This document shows, one piece after another, positions 10,308-54,873 of a stretch of DNA of 64,000 bases (positions are counted from its first letter, which is position 1; each line of letters opens with the position of its first letter). The notes beneath the pieces were generated by a model, which worked only from the letters and a program-made list of their open reading frames with translations, was not told the origin of the DNA and made no database searches. The position numbers were made by a program, and so were the translations under genes. This stretch comes from a phage: the NCBI GenBank assembly GCA_029220445.1, contig GCA_029220445.1_3666.1; one strand, written 5' to 3'.

Positions 10308-10781
10308 TTAGTCAACCTGAACCCAACCATCTGCTGCCTTTTTAAACATTCTTTGGTTATCACTACCTCTGAAGGGTTTTTTGGTGGGGTTATCTTTTTC
10401 GTACTTACCATCCATAATGTAATCGACACTATCTTTAATGTAATCGGGAACCTCTTCAAACAAATACCCTGTGTACACCCAGATAGTTTTTGTGTTGCCG
10501 AAGTGTTCACGGATAGCGCGAATGATCGAGTACATACCATCAATATTGTAAGGCGCTAAAGGTTCGCCACCGCATAATGTAACGCCAGTAATGTGTTTCG
10601 GCTCTATAGAGTGAAGTATGCTCTCAATAGTGTCATTTGTTAACGGTTCCCCTTTAGCTGGTGACCAAACACTTTTGTTTTGGCAACCGACGCAGTGATG
10701 TGGGCAACCAGAACAGAACACCGTTGTCCTAATGCCTGGGCCGTCAACCATGCTACACTCTATAATATTAACAACATTCAT
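10308..10781 (-). CDS. nrdG: anaerobic ribonucleotide reductase activating protein (radical SAM)
   Basis: N-terminal Cys cluster VFCSGCPHHCVGC typical of NrdG activases; sits next to nrdD. Confidence 0.85.
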   Translation of the reverse strand: MNVVNIIECSMVDGPGIRTTVFCSGCPHHCVGCQNKSVWSPAKGEPLTNDTIESILHSIEPKHITGVTLCGGEPLAPYNIDGMYSIIRAIREHFGNTKTIWVYTGYLFEEVPDYIKDSVDYIMDGKYEKDNPTKKPFRGSDNQRMFKKAADGWVQVD

Positions 10782-11014
10782 TCCTTATCCTCTTTTAGGT
10801 AAGGATATTCAGGCCCACAATAAGCTCTATCCAAGAAAACAGCTTCTTCCCCTCTGGAATCAGTAGATCTATAATACCCATCACCATGGTAACTAACGAA
10901 CCAGTGGCACCCATCATCGCTTTCTACTGTTGTGGCTCTGTCCGAATGAAAGATAATTTCGTAATCCTTACCGAATGTAAACCATCTGTTAGCTTTTACA
11001 CAGACACCTATCAT
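10778..11014 (-). CDS. hypothetical protein
   Basis: 78-aa ORF overlapping nrdG start by 4 nt. Confidence 0.4.
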   Translation of the reverse strand: MIGVCVKANRWFTFGKDYEIIFHSDRATTVESDDGCHWFVSYHGDGYYRSTDSRGEEAVFLDRAYCGPEYPYLKEDKE

Positions 11015-32242: not shown

Positions 32243-32593
32243 TTAGTAGATGTTTTGTTTGATCTCTATTCCAAACTTCTTGAATGAGTCAGCAGCAAGC
32301 ATAAATTTACGAGCTGCCGATGGATTAGAAGTATGCACGAAAATAATCACGTTGTCAATAAGTGGTGGCTTTCCGAATACAAGTTTCTCCTCTAGCGCAG
32401 AGAAGCAGTCGTACCCTTCAAGAACTTCACCTAGATCATTGTCAAAATACCATTCAGATACGCGTCTGTAGAGCTTTCTCTTATCATTAAGAAAATCCAT
32501 AAATTCAGAAGAATTCTTTAGCCACAGAGCGTCTGGGAGTCCATAATCTGACGGATCTCTAAAATCATCAAGCCACACAATCCACTTCTTCAT
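32243..32593 (-). CDS. hypothetical protein with CheY-like receiver (flavodoxin-fold) resemblance
   Basis: ATG at 32593 forms an ATGA overlap with the RNA ligase stop; IVWLDDF and VSEWYFDNDLGEV resemble receiver-domain blocks, with Glu at the phospho-acceptor position. Confidence 0.4.
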   Translation of the reverse strand: MKKWIVWLDDFRDPSDYGLPDALWLKNSSEFMDFLNDKRKLYRRVSEWYFDNDLGEVLEGYDCFSALEEKLVFGKPPLIDNVIIFVHTSNPSAARKFMLAADSFKKFGIEIKQNIY

Positions 32594-33525
32594 TGCATAT
32601 AGTCCTCGTTGTGGAAATAGCAGTCCAGTATCTCGCGACGCTCCTGCTCTAATAAGCAATTCCACACATCTTCTGTATAGTTGCTACGAATAAATTTTAC
32701 CATACCGTAAAACTCCTCGTCAACACGTTTAAAAATATCGTCATCCCAAATCTTCCATGCTTTACCTCTCATTACGGCCTTCCGTGCCAAATAGTATGGA
32801 GACTTGATCTTCAGCTGCAGGTCATAAGGGCAGTAAGGCTTACGGATCATATACCCTTCGCCCCTTGTTTCTGCAGCTAATTCTTTTGCATAGCTGAACG
32901 GGATTTCACGCACAGTGTGAGGACGTTTTGCACCAAGGTATTTGGCAATCCCATCTAAAGCTGCTTCTGGTAGCATTATTCCAGAATCATTATATCTGCA
33001 ACCTATCAAATATGCGCCATGGTCTTCTTGAACAATATGCGGATCTGAAGGGTGACAAATTTCAAACATGAATGTCATGTTTTCATTGCCCATAACCTTC
33101 TTGATAAGATCTAAATTACCACATTGCTCTTGGATGGTTTCCTTTGCAAGGTTACAATATGGAGAATCAAGAGACCCGGTTGTTGAGAACAATAGTTCAC
33201 CTTTATGAGATGATACCACACCGAGGAATCCGTTCTTTTTCTCTACCGCAGTAACAAGTTTACTGTCCGGTAGGTTGGTGGAGTTTTCTCCTAAGTTGAA
33301 TACTTTTGTGAAAGGCCATGCCACAACATTCCCCTCATTGCCAACAACAATACCTCGGCACTCCAGTAAACGCGGAGACAAATGCCACAGATTGTTGTAG
33401 AATACTTTTCTGGCATATTTATAGATCTTTAATCCAAGATCTGGATAATACCGACTGGTTACAAGACCTTTGTCTACTAGGTCATCTGCATTAAAATACT
33501 TCATCATACGTTCCTCATTTGTCAT
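32590..33525 (-). CDS. RNA ligase (Rnl2-like nucleotidyltransferase)
   Basis: EKKNGFLGVV (motif I KxNG), FMFEI (motif IV), GEGYMIRKPYCPYDLQLKIKS matching T4 Rnl2 EGYVLKP...IKCK. Confidence 0.75.
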   Translation of the reverse strand: MTNEERMMKYFNADDLVDKGLVTSRYYPDLGLKIYKYARKVFYNNLWHLSPRLLECRGIVVGNEGNVVAWPFTKVFNLGENSTNLPDSKLVTAVEKKNGFLGVVSSHKGELLFSTTGSLDSPYCNLAKETIQEQCGNLDLIKKVMGNENMTFMFEICHPSDPHIVQEDHGAYLIGCRYNDSGIMLPEAALDGIAKYLGAKRPHTVREIPFSYAKELAAETRGEGYMIRKPYCPYDLQLKIKSPYYLARKAVMRGKAWKIWDDDIFKRVDEEFYGMVKFIRSNYTEDVWNCLLEQERREILDCYFHNEDYMQ

Positions 33526-33568
33526 TTTGTCAGTCTATCCTGCCACACAAATAACCTAGTGTCAACAC

Positions 33569-33597
33569 TTGAAATTAACAAAACAGTTAGGTATACT
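33569..33597 (+). promoter_or_regulatory. sigma70-type promoter TTGAAA-N17-TATACT
   Basis: hexamers at 33569-33574 and 33592-33597 in the divergent intergenic region; GGAGGA SD and ATG at 33626 follow. Confidence 0.5.
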
Positions 33598-33625
33598 ATC
33601 ATTAAAATTAAAACGGAGGATTGCT

Positions 33626-34036
33626 ATGTCTAAAATGCTATATATCGTGCGTGGTCTGCCAGGGTCTGGCAAATCAACACTGGCAAATGCGCTATCTTTA
33701 GAAGGTCTGTATCCACATTTTGAGAACGACATGTTCTGGTATGACGATGACGGCAATTACAACTGGGATGCAAGTAAAGTAACACTCGCAGCAAAATGGT
33801 GCAAAGATAACGTAGAAGATATGATGAGTATGGGATACGACCGTATCGTGGTAAGTAATACGTTTACAAAAGAAAAACATGTGCAGGAATATGTTGACAT
33901 GGCAATCAGTCATGGGTATAGTTATACCGTGATCGTGGTTGAAAACCGCCACGGTAATAAAAGCATTCATGATGTTCCAGACAAGGTTGTGGATCGTATG
34001 GAACGCCAGCTTAAAAACTGCATTAAACTTAAATGA
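33626..34036 (+). CDS. P-loop polynucleotide 5'-kinase-like protein
   Basis: MSKMLYIVRGLPGSGKSTLA resembles the N-terminus of the T4 Pnk kinase domain; start taken at ATG 33626 rather than the track's TTG 33569. Confidence 0.65.
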   Translation: MSKMLYIVRGLPGSGKSTLANALSLEGLYPHFENDMFWYDDDGNYNWDASKVTLAAKWCKDNVEDMMSMGYDRIVVSNTFTKEKHVQEYVDMAISHGYSYTVIVVENRHGNKSIHDVPDKVVDRMERQLKNCIKLK

Positions 34037-34043
34037 GGAATGT

Positions 34044-34598
34044 ATGAAATACTTTGTAACAAGCGACACACACTTTCTCCACCAGCGGGTCATGGAGTTT
34101 GATTCATGTCAAAAACACAGATCTCAGTATGATCACAATCTTGACAGTATGAATGCGGGAATCATCGCCGAGTGGAACTCTGTTGTGTCACCTGCAGACA
34201 CTGTGTTCCACTTGGGAGATATTGCGTGCACTAATGATAAGAATATCAACAAATTACTTCCAGATATTCTAGATATGTTGAACGGACATATTATTCTTGT
34301 TCGTGGCAACCATGACACAAGGACGACTGTCAGAATTATGAAAGAGTTCTATCACGAGGTTGTAGATTATTACGAGCTTCGCCACAACAAGAATTTGATC
34401 TGTATGAGCCATTACCAATTTGCAAAGTGGAACAGAAAGCCTCACGGATCAGTCCAACTGTTCGGTCATGCTCACGGAACCACACAACAGTTGTTTGGCA
34501 GGCAGCTTGATGTCGGTTGGGATGTGTGGGGGAGACTCTTACCATTAGAAGAGGCATACCGTACTGCAATGAGTTTTGATATTGACAGCAGGGAGTAA
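34044..34598 (+). CDS. calcineurin-like metallophosphoesterase (putative 2',3'/3'-phosphatase)
   Basis: MKYFVTSDTHFLH, HLGDIA, LVRGNHDT, GHAH metallophosphatase motifs; start at ATG 34044 with GAGGAA SD. Confidence 0.8.
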   Translation: MKYFVTSDTHFLHQRVMEFDSCQKHRSQYDHNLDSMNAGIIAEWNSVVSPADTVFHLGDIACTNDKNINKLLPDILDMLNGHIILVRGNHDTRTTVRIMKEFYHEVVDYYELRHNKNLICMSHYQFAKWNRKPHGSVQLFGHAHGTTQQLFGRQLDVGWDVWGRLLPLEEAYRTAMSFDIDSRE

Positions 34599-34645
34599 TC
34601 CCTGCTATTTTAAAGAAAATTGCCACACAAGGAGAATCAGGAGAT

Positions 34646-34996
34646 ATGAAAGATGGGGATAAGCTGCTATATCTTAAAGTCCCCCTTGAAATACTGTCTA
34701 TGTCAAAAGTTTTGAATGACACAACTGGGGAGGTTGTTGTTCTTGACTTGTATGACAAGATCGTATACTGCTACCTGCACAACTGGTATAAACTTGGAGG
34801 AAATTCACGCTTCACACCCAGCACAAGGAAAATTGCAGCAGATGTTGGGATAAAGAAAACAAAAGCAGCAGCGTGCGTTAAAACTTTAGAATGTGCAGGA
34901 TTGGTTGAAACATCCACACAGGGGAGAGGTAAAAGATGCACATTTTCCAAAGTTTTGCCACCAGAAAAAGTTATTCGAATGTCAACAACTGGTTAG
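34646..34996 (+). CDS. winged-helix DNA-binding protein
   Basis: STRKIAADVGIKKTKAAACVKTLECAGLVE helix-turn-helix segment; gene ends 76 bp before the operator array. Confidence 0.5.
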   Translation: MKDGDKLLYLKVPLEILSMSKVLNDTTGEVVVLDLYDKIVYCYLHNWYKLGGNSRFTPSTRKIAADVGIKKTKAAACVKTLECAGLVETSTQGRGKRCTFSKVLPPEKVIRMSTTG

Positions 34997-35071
34997 ACCA
35001 GTAAAAACTTAAATATCTGTACTATAAGGATTCGTATGTTTTATGTTCGCTCTGGAACAGAGGTTAGTAAC

Positions 35072-35152
35072 TGTCCGTGATACGGACACTACTGTCCGTC
35101 ACGCGGACACATCTGCCCGTAATACGGACACTAACTGTCCGTGATACGGACA
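35072..35152. repeat. four phased 17-bp palindromic sites TGTCCGT-N3-ACGGACA (operator or iteron array)
   Basis: copies at 35072-35088, 35093-35109, 35114-35130, 35136-35152; copies 1 and 4 identical, 2 and 3 each one mismatch; spacing 21, 21, 22 bp. Confidence 0.7.
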
Positions 35153-35639
35153 CATAAAGAATATAACTAAAATAACTAAATAATAAAAAATAAAAGATCT
35201 AGTACTTATGGTACTAAAGTACATATACTTAACTTATGTAGAATATACTAGATCCTAAGTACCATGTTTTAAATTTATTACTTACTGTAGGTAGTGTCGG
35301 CCCTTCATTGGCACTCGCCTACGAGGGGCGAGATGCCGGGCCTCCGTAGTGCACACATGCAGGTCTGTTAACATGTGTGGGAGCGAAGCGATAGCGCAGG
35401 CCAAAGGCCGAGCACTAATGTGGACCACCGACGAAAGCTTGCCAGCGCCGTAAGGAGTCGGTTGAGAGCCTCCCGCGCGAGTTTGGATAAAGTTTATGTG
35501 TGGAAACGGACAATGAGGCCCCTAAATCGCTCCACAGCCATATAAACTATACCAAGTAAGGCAATCGCACCAGTTTGATAGAAAAGCTCGTTACAAAGCG
35601 ATACAGTGAGTTTTTCTATAACTTGAAGAGGAGGCAGCT

Positions 35640-36218
35640 ATGAGTCCACGCAAAGATGACCGTGAAAAGATTGCAAAACGTTATCAGAATGAAGAACAGA
35701 TGGAGAAAACTTTCAAGTGGAAGCCAGGTTTCCAGCGTAATCATTCTAACGCTCGTGATCGTAAGCATCCGGATAAGTGGTTAACACCGCCAAATGATGG
35801 CATGCAGGTTGGTGATGAGAAGGAGCTGTCACCTGGAAAAGATGGCAACTACATTCGCACTAAGGAAGCAGGTCCAAAGGATGACAGCTATCTTGTAGAT
35901 AAGGTTCTTGATGGTATTGATGTAGATGTTGACACTGCACGAAACCTTTTTCTTGGTTGGTATCGTACAGGGTTTTTCGACATCAAGGCGATTCGTCGTG
36001 TTTGTGATATTAAAAAGTCTGCCTATGATGATGACTCTCTACATCGCACTCTGAGACAATACTCAGAGAGATACGGTCATCCAGTTATCACTCTTGACGA
36101 TATTAACGAAGTGATGTATCATGCAGAGGTTGTTGCAGGTAGATTCGGTGATGCATATCTCGGTATTCTTTCTGCAAAAGATGAGGTGATGTTAAATAAA
36201 ATTTACTATGAACGCTGA
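35640..36218 (+). CDS. hypothetical protein
   Basis: 192-aa ORF with GAGGAGG SD. Confidence 0.5.
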   Translation: MSPRKDDREKIAKRYQNEEQMEKTFKWKPGFQRNHSNARDRKHPDKWLTPPNDGMQVGDEKELSPGKDGNYIRTKEAGPKDDSYLVDKVLDGIDVDVDTARNLFLGWYRTGFFDIKAIRRVCDIKKSAYDDDSLHRTLRQYSERYGHPVITLDDINEVMYHAEVVAGRFGDAYLGILSAKDEVMLNKIYYER

Positions 36219-37459: not shown

Positions 37460-37517
37460 TGTAAACATGGTCTCCCACCTTTTCTGGCGGCTAAGGTGTA
37501 AAAGAAAGCCACCCAGT

Positions 37518-37592
37518 GCCCTGTTAGCTTAGTGGATAAAGCAGCGGCCTTCTAAGCCGTTGACACTGGTTCGAGTCCAGTACGGGGTGCCA
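37518..37592 (+). tRNA. tRNA-Arg (anticodon TCT)
   Basis: manual fold: 7-bp acceptor, D arm GCTT/AAGC, anticodon loop CTTCTAA with U33, T loop TTCGAGT, encoded CCA. Confidence 0.8.
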
Positions 37593-37596
37593 AATT

Positions 37597-37683
37597 GGGG
37601 AGTTATCCCGTAGAGGTAGCGGTGTAGACTGTAAATCTATTGTCATTGCGACTCGGGTGGTTCGACTCCACCACTCCCCACCA
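37597..37683 (+). tRNA. tRNA-Tyr (anticodon GTA), class II with long variable arm
   Basis: perfect 7-bp acceptor GGGGAGT/ACTCCCC, anticodon loop CTGTAAA, T loop TTCGACT, encoded CCA. Confidence 0.8.
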
Positions 37684-37797
37684 AATTTATATTTTTAGAT
37701 GCATAAATAATACAGATAATGGCATTGATATTTATCGTCGTTTATACTAGTCACTAACTGCTCGAAAATCAGTGTCATTATCAGTATAATTTATAAA

Positions 37798-37888
37798 GGA
37801 GGGTAGGGAGCAATGGTGCTCAAGCGGTCTTGAAAACCGTCCCGTTGAGGATGACTCGATGATGGTTCGATTCCATTACTCTCCGCCA
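37798..37888 (+). tRNA. tRNA-Ser (anticodon TGA), class II with long variable arm
   Basis: acceptor GGAGGGT/ACTCTCC, anticodon loop CTTGAAA, 20-nt variable arm, T loop TTCGATT, encoded CCA. Confidence 0.75.
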
Positions 37889-37986
37889 CATTGTTGACCT
37901 TGTAATTAAGCGAAAGCCGGAAGCAGAACCGGATTATCAAATGTTACAGTCGTCATCGCCGACTAGCAACATGGTCAACATACTGA

Positions 37987-38083
37987 GCTAGGTAAGCCCT
38001 TTGGCAAGGGCGAGGATTTTTAATCCTGAAAATAGACGAGGTAGTCGTTGAATACATAGGTGGTTCGATTCCATCACCTAGCA
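37987..38083 (+). tRNA. tRNA-like element with aberrant anticodon arm (possible Lys-UUU variant or pseudo-tRNA)
   Basis: perfect 7-bp acceptor GCTAGGT/ACCTAGC, canonical D arm and T arm, but the anticodon-arm position is a 5-bp stem with a 5-nt loop TTTTA (or 4-bp stem with loop TTTTTAA) and about 30 extra nt precede the T arm; no encoded CCA. Confidence 0.35.
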
Positions 38084-38090
38084 CCTTTTT

Positions 38091-38166
38091 GCTGATGTAG
38101 CACAATCGGTAGTGCAATTGATTTGTAATCAATAGGTTGTAGGTTCAAGTCCTGCCATCAGCACCA
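38091..38166 (+). tRNA. tRNA-Thr (anticodon TGT)
   Basis: perfect acceptor GCTGATG/CATCAGC, anticodon loop TTTGTAA, T loop TTCAAGT, encoded CCA. Confidence 0.8.
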
Positions 38167-47211: not shown

Positions 47212-47670
47212 ATGCTAAAGGTTAAATGTCAAACAAGGTTCAACCTAAAGCGTTTAGATCGCTTCTACAAAGAGCTTGTGAGACTTGAAAGTAAAACAAT
47301 AACCTACGGCTTTTATGACGAACCTCACCCGTCAGGCTTAAATATGGCAACATTGGCAGCCATTCACAACTTCGGTTGGAACGGGCTGCCTGTTCGCAAT
47401 TTCATGGAGACAGCTTTTGCATTTCATAGTACTCAACTACAGACCTTGACAGAAAAATTGTTGAGAGCTATGGCTAGGGGATCGAGTGCAGAGGCTATTC
47501 TTAAGCAGATGGGGGACACAGGGGCCAAAGCTATCCAGTTTGTTATTGAGGCTGGGCAGTTTAGTAATCCTACTGTTAGCGAGCAGTGGGCACAAGAGAA
47601 AGGCTTCAACGAGGCTATGCGGCATTACGATGTGCTGCTTGAATCTGCAACCTTTAAAATCGGACAGTAA
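47212..47670 (+). CDS. hypothetical virion protein
   Basis: ATG at 47212 after GAGGG; the track's start at 47200 is GTG. Confidence 0.45.
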   Translation: MLKVKCQTRFNLKRLDRFYKELVRLESKTITYGFYDEPHPSGLNMATLAAIHNFGWNGLPVRNFMETAFAFHSTQLQTLTEKLLRAMARGSSAEAILKQMGDTGAKAIQFVIEAGQFSNPTVSEQWAQEKGFNEAMRHYDVLLESATFKIGQ

Positions 47671-53988: not shown

Positions 53989-54873
53989 ATGCCAAGCAAT
54001 ATAGTTGATGAAAAAGACCTGTACAAGCCTCAAGAGGTTAAATCTCCAAAGGCTGAAAAGGCAGAGCAGCAAACTGAAAGCGATGTAAAGTACACTATGT
54101 TTGTCAGCGGTCTTAACTATGGCGGTCGCAATACGGAGATGAAGGGTAAAAACTTTACTAACGATCTTGCCATTATCTTCGATCAGGTTGAGAATTACTC
54201 TTTCAAACATTCTGTTGATAAGACTGGGTTTGCGGTGGAAGATAAATCTACCCTGTCAGACCACGCTGTAATTAAAGATGGTGTATTTTCTTTTACTGGT
54301 AGGGTAAATACATCCCCACACATAATTTATGAGCAAAACTACATTGATAGGAATACTGACTCTAAAAACCCTGCAGCATCTATGCGACCAGGCGCTGCAT
54401 TGGAGGCTTTGACTGAGATTATCAATAAGCGACAGTTGGTTTCTTTGGTTACCGAGGAGAGACTTCTTGAGAACTACATCATAACCAGTCTTTCTGCCAA
54501 CAAGTCTGTTGGTGAAGGCGCTGCAATGGTGTTTGATGTAGAGCTTACAGAGTTCCGCACATTCTACTTGAATAAGGTTGTTAATGCAACTGTATACAGC
54601 AATCCTAAGAAAGTAGGCAAAACCCAGCAAAAAGGTGCTGTCAACGACTGTAAGAATGGCAGTAACGTGGGTAACAAGAGGGACACAGGAGCATTCGCAG
54701 ACACTGCATCCACAAACGCTGCAGAGGAGTGGCAGCCATACAAATCTATGATGTGGACAGATGAAAACGGTGTTACCCAATCGGCTGCGGATTGGTATTA
54801 TCAGGAATATGGAAGACCTTCTACCATAGTCCCATCTGAGCAGGGAAACTACAACAAAGTTAACGGGAAATAA
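53989..54873 (+). CDS. tail or baseplate protein
   Basis: ATG at 53989 with GGAGAGG SD (alternative in-frame ATG at 53962 lies 7 nt after the -10 element). Confidence 0.5.
   Translation: MPSNIVDEKDLYKPQEVKSPKAEKAEQQTESDVKYTMFVSGLNYGGRNTEMKGKNFTNDLAIIFDQVENYSFKHSVDKTGFAVEDKSTLSDHAVIKDGVFSFTGRVNTSPHIIYEQNYIDRNTDSKNPAASMRPGAALEALTEIINKRQLVSLVTEERLLENYIITSLSANKSVGEGAAMVFDVELTEFRTFYLNKVVNATVYSNPKKVGKTQQKGAVNDCKNGSNVGNKRDTGAFADTASTNAAEEWQPYKSMMWTDENGVTQSAADWYYQEYGRPSTIVPSEQGNYNKVNGK

Follow-up and report, generated by a model that had tools for sequence, protein, structure and literature searches.

A conserved, folded non-coding element beside a candidate replication origin in rV5-like phages and in small, satellite-like Escherichia coli plasmids

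The 64,000-nt stretch of phage DNA analysed here (contig GCA_029220445.1_3666.1 of GenBank assembly GCA_029220445.1; hereafter the window) is 99.7% identical to Escherichia phage rV5, a Vequintavirus, the reverse strand of the rV5 record corresponding to the + strand of the window. Between the genes for gp075 and gp073, 643 nt (34997–35639) are free of open reading frames (ORFs) of 60 or more amino acids, and this gap contains a GC-rich island. Comparison with relatives indicates that the island is a conserved, non-coding, strand-specific folded element; within the searches made, its homologues are confined to Vequintavirus phages and to E. coli plasmids of about 13 kb. The balance tips slightly towards a structured RNA leader that would be made from the gp075 promoter and, by way of a factor bound to its conserved loop, affect the neighbouring origin or the rightward operon. 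A first-pass annotation of the window, which had already reported the gap as ORF-free, had offered an origin, a structured non-coding RNA or a long regulatory leader as explanations for the region as a whole. The gap instead comprises two separable modules, an AT-rich part that is origin-like and an island that fits an RNA or a leader.

Base composition marks the two modules. The segment 35155–35284 has 19.2% GC, the lowest among all 80-, 100- and 130-nt windows of the 64 kb, and directly adjoins the most GC-rich 250 nt of the same 64 kb (35290–35539; 58.4% GC, against a window mean of 43.3%). Both an AT-rich stretch of about 130 bp and a GC-rich island had been described in the first-pass annotation; the island stands, and its proposed limits (35290–35540) are refined by conservation in relatives to about 35293–35527. 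In length, the gap ranks second among the ORF-free gaps of the window, the longest being the tRNA cluster at 37479–38128. The features of the island are as follows.

35293–35527, + strand: GC-rich structured non-coding element (the island)
35299–35342, + strand: 5′ hairpin of three stacked stems
35299–35303 with 35338–35342, + strand: stem 1 of the 5′ hairpin, GGCCC/GGGCC
35310–35313 with 35334–35337, + strand: stem 2 of the 5′ hairpin, GGCA/UGCC
35314–35319 with 35327–35332, + strand: stem 3 of the 5′ hairpin, CUCGCC/GGCGAG
35352–35379, + strand: variable hairpin (inverted repeat I25), CACACAUG / CAUGUGUG
35375–35478, + strand: core domain, with a candidate outer helix of GUGUGGGAG (35375–35383) and CUCCCGCGC (35470–35478)
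Interior of the core domain, + strand: a GGCC-AAA-GGCC hairpin (35399–35409), the conserved AAUGUGGACC (35417–35426) and the core helix
35427–35462, + strand: core helix, ACCGAC/GUCGGU (35427–35432 with 35457–35462)
35517–35527, + strand: 3′ motif, GGCCCCUAAAU
35375–35545, + strand: ORF78 (rv5_gp074), annotated in rV5 with a GTG start, 56 amino acids, basic; judged here not to be a gene

Variation within Vequintavirus is too small to test a fold, and three more distant sources were therefore used: two contigs from uncultured Vequintavirus-like phage (L002 and L019, from IMG/VR and Logan), the ~13-kb plasmids, and the divergent plasmid L042. All 15 pairs of the 5′ hairpin are kept in nine distinct sequences, against 35–47% paired after sliding by 1–3 columns, and two of these pairs go from G-C to U-A in plasmid L020. 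The core helix is 100% paired in 16 sequences, with both partners altered in three of its six pairs (A-U to G-U to G-C, C-G to U-A, and A-U to C-G). The two tested helices are thus fully paired, compared with 31–47% when slid; for the core domain, alignment A3 gives 96.8% of cells paired, against 31–43% after sliding. The first-pass annotation had proposed looking for compensatory changes in related phages, and among the homologues compared, phage and plasmid, such changes are present: five pairs are altered on both sides and still paired, as is characteristic of a structured-RNA helix. Insertions and deletions whose length is not a multiple of three fall in loops.

The segment enclosed by the core helix, GAAAGCUUGCCAGCGCCG(N)AAGGA, is nearly invariant in phages and most plasmids, varying at N and by a C-to-U change in L014. 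At the core-helix position L042 carries a third sequence for the helix, a different, perfect 8-bp hairpin (GUCCGGAU/AUCCGGAC), and lacks the conserved loop; GAAAGCUUGCCAGCGCCG(N)AAGGA is thus a surface specific to a subfamily, not one shared by all. The sequence of the outer helix, with two invariant U-G pairs, is kept across phages and all plasmid variants, including L042. Sequence conservation, rather than proven covariation, is what speaks for this helix and for the long-range closings (CCCACA with UGUGGG), and both are candidate helices. Just upstream of the variable hairpin, after 35347, most relatives have an 18-nt insertion, and in the hairpin itself a C-to-U change in relatives leaves a U-G wobble; the 3′ arm of this hairpin shares positions with the 5′ arm of the outer helix, so that the element may adopt one fold or the other. 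In the 3′ motif, CUAAAU is kept in all lineages except L002 (CUAAAC). Two further pairings, 35338–35344 with 35513–35519 and CUAAAU with GUUUGG, were rejected, the variants giving them no support in alignments read by eye.

Several traits of the + strand are RNA-like: invariant U-G pairs, wobble intermediates, GNRA-type loops that include G(U/G)AA with a variable N, and a C-GAAA-G turn. The plasmid modules of the element also contain C(UUCG)G loops. By these comparative criteria the + strand is the functional strand of the folded island.

The longest ORF in the gap is ORF78, which is annotated in rV5 and in some further records, most other annotators having left the region empty. It was examined in 17 sequences: that of the window, 14 from Vequintaviruses in GenBank and two from a more distant lineage. 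The variable positions are distributed 16:18:17 over the three codon positions, with no 3-nt periodicity in any frame, which excludes a constrained frame on either strand. Changes within ORF78 comprise 12 synonymous and 44 non-synonymous ones, and the frame, open in 14 of the 17 sequences, is broken by a stop in L002 and by frameshifts in L011 and L015; nor is it kept in the plasmid homologues. No Shine-Dalgarno sequence precedes the GTG, and the translation has no Pfam or PHROG match. A conserved small frame under purifying selection, which the first-pass annotation had named as evidence that would overturn its view of the region, was thus not found, and it is hardly credible that the island serves to encode the 56-aa basic protein or any other short protein.

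The island is kept in 119 Vequintavirus records, so that the conservation in related phages on which the first-pass annotation had made its reading depend is present. In L002 and L019 it is about 92% conserved and gp073 is 83% identical, while the DNA to the left of 35293 is unrelated. With a covariance model made from the core, one copy is detected in each plasmid and one in the whole rV5 genome, with no second copy there. Searches with existing covariance models, also suggested earlier, returned no Rfam 15 family at the gathering threshold, only tRNAs passing in the window; at a permissive E-value of 10 the best match to 34900–35750 was rli43 (26.5 bits, against a threshold of 100), and at an E-value of 5 the homologous plasmid region gave none. 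The syntenic loci of Mydovirus, Seunavirus and Henunavirus have neither a gap nor a hit to the covariance model. The exact core pattern had no match in 185,579 species genomes; its degenerate form matched a single rV5-like contig in IMG/VR and, in metagenomes, nothing but rV5-like and plasmid-like contigs, five chance matches within GC-rich genes aside. A host-derived fragment was considered and rejected, no chromosomal E. coli match being found. A link to gp073 was likewise rejected: P0006, a homologue from another phage with 50% identity to gp073, is encoded at a tightly packed locus that lacks an upstream island, and the plasmids have no gp073. A literature search for the island sequence found no report.

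Two sets of database records turned up in this survey carry unexpected labels. Eighteen GenBank entries of the MG0656xx series are named 'Campylobacter phage' (host C. jejuni) and are, in this region, 88–99.8% identical to rV5-like coliphages; they are probably mislabelled or contaminant genomes. CP057073.1, a 137.6-kb 'E. coli plasmid' from cattle faeces, contains the island at full length and 90% identity and appears to be a complete rV5-like phage genome, either in a carrier state or assembled from phage DNA.

The plasmids that share the element (L020, which is NZ_CP020521.1; L021–L024; L027; L030; L042) are circular E. coli plasmids of about 13.2–13.9 kb, classed as non-mobilizable in PLSDB; a 39.6-kb plasmid record with three copies of the element may be a trimer. 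As a group they have a major capsid gene of their own, genes for a Dit-like and a tape-measure protein, an O-like Rep and several types of iteron. L020 (13,689 bp) encodes its own major head protein and an O-like Rep, together with a Dit-like protein 50% identical to that of window 54052–54675, a second protein 45% identical to that of 47218–47640 and a tape-measure protein 25% identical to its rV5 counterpart. No terminase, portal or replisome genes (helicase, primase, polymerase) were recognised in the plasmids. From this gene content we infer that they are probably satellites of rV5-like phages; a literature search for rV5 satellites or for such plasmids found no description.

In the plasmids the element is preceded directly by Rep-type iterons, which fall into at least four sequence types, and by a short spacer that is AT-rich and G-rich; the strong rep-operon promoters lie on its other side, downstream. 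The plasmids carry the island core, L020 also carries the 5′ hairpin, and metagenome contigs match; L042 has the same architecture in a different sequence. The plasmid version is modular: a variable number of cassettes, in the clearest cases of three small hairpins each, precedes the core and ends in (C/U)UGUGUGGG. Two terminator-like hairpins lie on the minus strand between element and iterons (L021:1243–1356 and L022:1294–1407) and may stop leftward transcription before it reaches the origin. At the nucleotide level, L020 and the complete rV5 genome share only the island, a 49-nt module and two short matches in shared tail genes. The 49-nt module, of three hairpins (CTGGC..GCCAG, GTGACC..GGTCAC and CCCTTCGGG), is 88% identical to a segment inside the L020 rep gene (10886–10934) and lies, outside the window, in a 2.6-kb unannotated gap of rV5 (104013–106618; L037:3814–6419), where transcription diverges and ACTGTTTACA / ATAGTTTACA repeats abound. 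That gap is a second candidate for the role of origin, pac site or RNA locus.

The other module of the window and the features that flank the island are listed below.

34646–34996, + strand: gp075 (rV5 ORF79), 116-aa winged-helix protein, upstream neighbour of the gap
35068–35153, no strand assigned: four dyad repeats (family D1) of 21–22 bp, each with an internal dyad (TGTCCGTnnnACGGACA), at spacings of 21, 21 and 22 bp
35154–35290, no strand assigned: AT-rich spacer with a tandem of ATAACTAAA (35163–35180), four GTAC motifs (35202–35262) and a 9-nt inverted repeat
35546–35639, + strand: gp073 leader with a 12-bp hairpin and the Shine-Dalgarno sequence GAGGAGG (35628–35634)
35640–36218, + strand: gp073, 192 amino acids, first downstream gene, PHROG 12226 (function unknown)

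The repeats described in the first-pass annotation are borne out: ATAACTAAA has two copies in the window, both in this tandem (35163 and 35172), and GTAC occurs four times in 143 nt (35202, 35211, 35219 and 35259) against 0.24 expected. Three GTAC motifs within 150 nt are found at two places in the window (35202–35259 and 10401–10530). The inverted repeat is perfect (35196–35204 with 35246–35254). The spacer is nearly invariant, with 0–6 variable sites per 30 nt in 16 Vequintavirus sequences, and a consensus scan for sigma-70 promoters found none there. This stretch may serve as a DNA-unwinding element or as a spacer with a regulatory role, and the four dyad repeats could be iterons or operators, with gp075, whose gene lies upstream of them, as their probable binder. 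gp075 matches DUF6945 (4e-7) and HTH_36 (6e-6) in Pfam and falls in PHROG 12838, a family named 'replication initiation protein'; its matches in the Protein Data Bank (PDB) are weak (the N-terminal domain of RepA_N, E about 0.3, and the winged helix-turn-helix of CodY).

In L002 and L019, gp075, the repeats and the AT-rich spacer are swapped as a block for an unrelated 143-aa protein, new repeats (of ATGCATCAGAT type) and another spacer, with the island and the leader of gp073 retained. The incoming protein has no Pfam hit, and the swapped-in repeats of L019:1807–2630 and L002 include a TGATACATATTTGCATCAGAT type. The exchange is a change in specificity of a DNA-binding protein together with its own sites; the AT-rich part therefore belongs to the module of the DNA-binding protein and the island is a separate unit.

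At least three direct repeats about two helical turns apart with an adjacent AT-rich region, the layout of a lambda-type origin, are present here, and by analogy gp075, the four dyad repeats and the AT-rich spacer have the anatomy of such an origin. The replication origin of rV5 could not be defined in the paper describing that phage (PMC3606486). A cluster of DnaA boxes was sought and rejected, with no local enrichment and a single one-mismatch site at 35482. For the AT-rich part, a purely regulatory function is a possible reading, one to which we give a fair share of weight but less than half: gp075 bound to its operators would block or time read-through into the island and gp073, or control a phage-specific promoter. 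It is consistent with gp075 being a bare 116-aa winged-helix domain that matches repressors (CodY, MarR-like), its small size suggesting that it may be a repressor rather than an initiator, with repeats that are perfect dyads, typical of operators, located between the gp075 stop and the next gene of the same transcript, and with a GTAC cluster that could serve as a binding array. However, no promoter-like site was found in the spacer, PHROG groups gp075 with replication initiators, four sites spaced 21–22 bp apart, with the most AT-rich part of the 64 kb after them, form a classic iteron-origin layout, and the plasmids share this order of parts with undoubted Rep-type iterons. On these features we lean slightly towards an origin.

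For the island itself, we infer transcription and a function exerted as RNA. An early rightward transcript from the sigma-70-like promoter ahead of gp075 (34582–34611) would include the island and continue into gp073, in which case the island would form about 230 nt of a ~345-nt leader. Transcription is plausible because of this upstream promoter and because no terminator-like site was found between it and gp073; the early region has many further sigma-70-like promoters on the + strand, where strong terminators first appear at 41.0, 45.6 and 50.6 kb. The RNA would fold into the 5′ hairpin, the variable hairpin and the core domain, whose core helix would present the near-invariant segment, probably to a phage or host factor, and it would influence either how the rightward operon is expressed or how the neighbouring origin is used. 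In three contexts (window-type phage, L019-type phage and plasmids) the element directly follows lineage-specific iteron-like repeats, a position that argues for a link to the origin. It is also co-oriented with the flanking genes in phage and plasmids, and this co-orientation, the wobble pairs and the loop types argue for RNA.

A number of observations weigh against such a leader RNA and an adjacent origin. The fold is only modestly more stable than that of shuffled sequences (z about −2.1 to −2.4, on either strand), DNA energy parameters predict the same helices, and few independent lineages contribute to the covariation. Promoter prediction places no sigma-70 site immediately ahead of the element, whether in the phage or on the plasmid sense strand; in the plasmids the strong promoters come after it, and such terminator-like hairpins as flank its 5′ edge all belong to the other strand. 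A literature search found no transcriptome of an rV5-like phage. As to the origin, gp075 has only 116 amino acids, and the minimum of the cumulative GC skew lies not at the repeats but 1.5 kb away, at 33584, where transcription diverges. Finally, several loops are of the GCGAAGC / CCGNAAGG 'mini-hairpin DNA' type, motifs known from single-strand priming sites such as the G4 complementary-strand origin and RSF1010 ssiA (PMC13037366).

These loops bear on a different explanation, in which the island is a single-stranded-DNA signal for priming or replisome loading, like RSF1010 ssiA/ssiB or of G4 type, that is exposed when the adjacent AT-rich DNA melts; the satellite-like plasmids would carry it to be copied by the replisome of the helper phage. 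Mini-hairpin motifs are found at 35383–35389 (GCGAAGC) and 35448–35455 (CCGUAAGG), and L042 has three C-GAA-G hairpins (motifs as in PMC13037366). Iterons adjoin the element in every setting (phage, swapped lineage and plasmids, the last with at least four iteron types), its helices also form under DNA parameters, and neither in phage nor in plasmids is a promoter predicted ahead of it. The plasmids, moreover, encode Rep but no recognisable helicase, primase or polymerase; their three-hairpin modules resemble the layout of the G4 origin, and the element of L027 aligns locally with that origin at z = 3.8 (29 columns; 0 of 300 shuffles better). By contrast, the rV5 island scores below 1.4 in the same comparison and its covariance model has no match to G4. 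In DNA a G-T wobble carries a cost, yet the outer helix keeps such pairs without variation and others occur as evolutionary intermediates; the loop types are inconsistent on any one strand (UAC and UUCG on the + strand being GTA and CGAA on the other); and co-orientation with flanking genes in both hosts is not required of such a signal. In rV5 gp225 the sole domain that Pfam identifies is a DnaB-like helicase, so that a primase of known specificity is unconfirmed; T7-type primase sites (GTGTC / GGGTC) at the 5′ edge of the island were also considered, and were dropped as not statistically meaningful. Taken together, a single-stranded-DNA signal appears unlikely; it is the leading alternative to the RNA leader. 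A broader proposal, that the island is a Vequintavirus-specific priming or loading signal or an origin-activating RNA, copied by ~13-kb satellites beside their own iterons for amplification driven by the helper, is similarly doubtful.

The plasmids also raise the question of packaging. Vequintaviruses are reported to package by the headful mechanism and to have circularly permuted genomes with no mapped pac site (PMC13211470, PMC8407724, PMC3606486), and the island could be that site, copied by satellite-like plasmids so as to be packaged. Such plasmids have a capsid gene and no recognisable terminase or portal, the island is among the very few nucleotide-level matches between plasmid and phage, and the terminase gene lies ~4 kb downstream of it. 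A pac site is nevertheless very improbable, because hairpin-preserving compensatory changes, like the wobbles, are not expected of a site recognised as duplex. Furthermore, L042 keeps the architecture without the conserved segment, the 49-nt module is likewise common to a plasmid and the 2.6-kb rV5 gap, and the plasmid element stands beside iterons, not packaging genes. The structured RNA leader described above remains the reading that we somewhat favour.

Parallels to known systems can be drawn for both modules. The lambda origin combines the winged-helix initiator O with four ~20-bp dyad iterons and an adjacent AT-rich stretch, and the window has the same set of parts: a winged-helix, initiator-type protein, four dyad repeats of similar length and an adjoining AT-rich stretch. 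However, the lambda origin lies inside the O gene, whereas the gp075 sites lie downstream of the gp075 gene; O has a C-terminal domain that recruits P-DnaB, whereas gp075 has only 116 amino acids; and lambda has no 230-nt GC-rich folded element beside its origin. HK022 put, lambda nut boxB and the Bacillus EAR are cis-acting leader RNAs of phage operons. Like them, the island would be an RNA that folds ahead of a long run of co-directional genes, its covarying stems displaying conserved loop nucleotides, GNRA-like loops among them. It differs from them in having no sequence or Rfam similarity, in being two to three times larger and in its context, the first strong + strand terminators lying only at 41.0, 45.6 and 50.6 kb and the strong promoters of the plasmids downstream of the element. 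C4 and P4 CI RNAs are similar in that a non-coding RNA is encoded in a leader beside the replication genes of a satellite or plasmid element and in that the leader has recurring short motifs complementary to each other (CCCACA and UGUGGG in the island). Their size and fold are different, no RNase P-type processing signal was identified in the island, and Rfam C4-type models gave no match in phage (E-value cut-off 10) or plasmid (5).

The RSF1010 oriV with ssiA/ssiB, and G4-type origins, resemble the locus in their succession of iterons, a GC- or AT-rich spacer and hairpin signals, in their GCGAAGC / CCGAAGG mini-hairpin loops and in the three-hairpin modules of the plasmid versions (PMC13037366); the similarity of the plasmid element to the G4 origin is local and weak. 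In contrast to these signals, no homology of the rV5 island to G4 was found by sequence or model, the island has wobbles that point to RNA, and whereas ssi signals are 40 nt long and form an oppositely oriented pair, the island is much larger and does not occur as such a pair. Within the Vequintavirinae, the pseudo-ToxI of phage PhiTE is likewise an intergenic non-coding RNA locus, with a role in conflict between phage and host or element (PMC3475682). Pseudo-ToxI, however, consists of tandem 36-nt repeats that mimic an antitoxin, and the island is not a tandem array and has no known toxin partner.

Downstream of the island, the gp073 leader is almost invariant, including in L002 and L019, and is absent from the plasmids. 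Its AU-rich, 12-bp hairpin (35578–35589 with 35608–35619; 18-nt loop) stands directly before the gp073 Shine-Dalgarno sequence and may be a translational operator or a processing site. No PDB relative of gp073 was found, and its AlphaFold model, with a mean pLDDT of 48.7, is too poor for a structure search. Upstream of the gap, 32590–34598 encodes RNA ligase 1, a P-loop AAA_33 (kinase-like) protein and a metallophosphoesterase, a trio that, near the tRNA cluster 2 kb downstream of the gap, resembles an RNA-repair cassette. At 37987–38085, ARAGORN calls a 99-nt tRNA-like gene with a four-base anticodon (atcc), for which the Rfam tRNA score is just over threshold (35.5 bits) and the rV5 record has no tRNA annotation. 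The large terminase subunit of rV5 is annotated as a three-piece join (ORF64ABC; L001:8531–8899, window about 39430 onward), which suggests intervening sequences in the gene.

rV5-like phages are common in E. coli O157 biocontrol and in phage collections, and their origin, pac site and non-coding RNAs are unmapped. The analysis adds a defined candidate origin module, a well-supported folded element outside Rfam 15 that some annotations label a hypothetical protein, and an unexpected link to small, satellite-like plasmids of E. coli. If the island should prove to be a priming or loading signal, or an RNA that activates the origin, this would locate the rV5 origin and define both a new cis element and a new helper–satellite system. 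The element shared by phage and plasmid would offer a direct way to study how a satellite exploits its helper.

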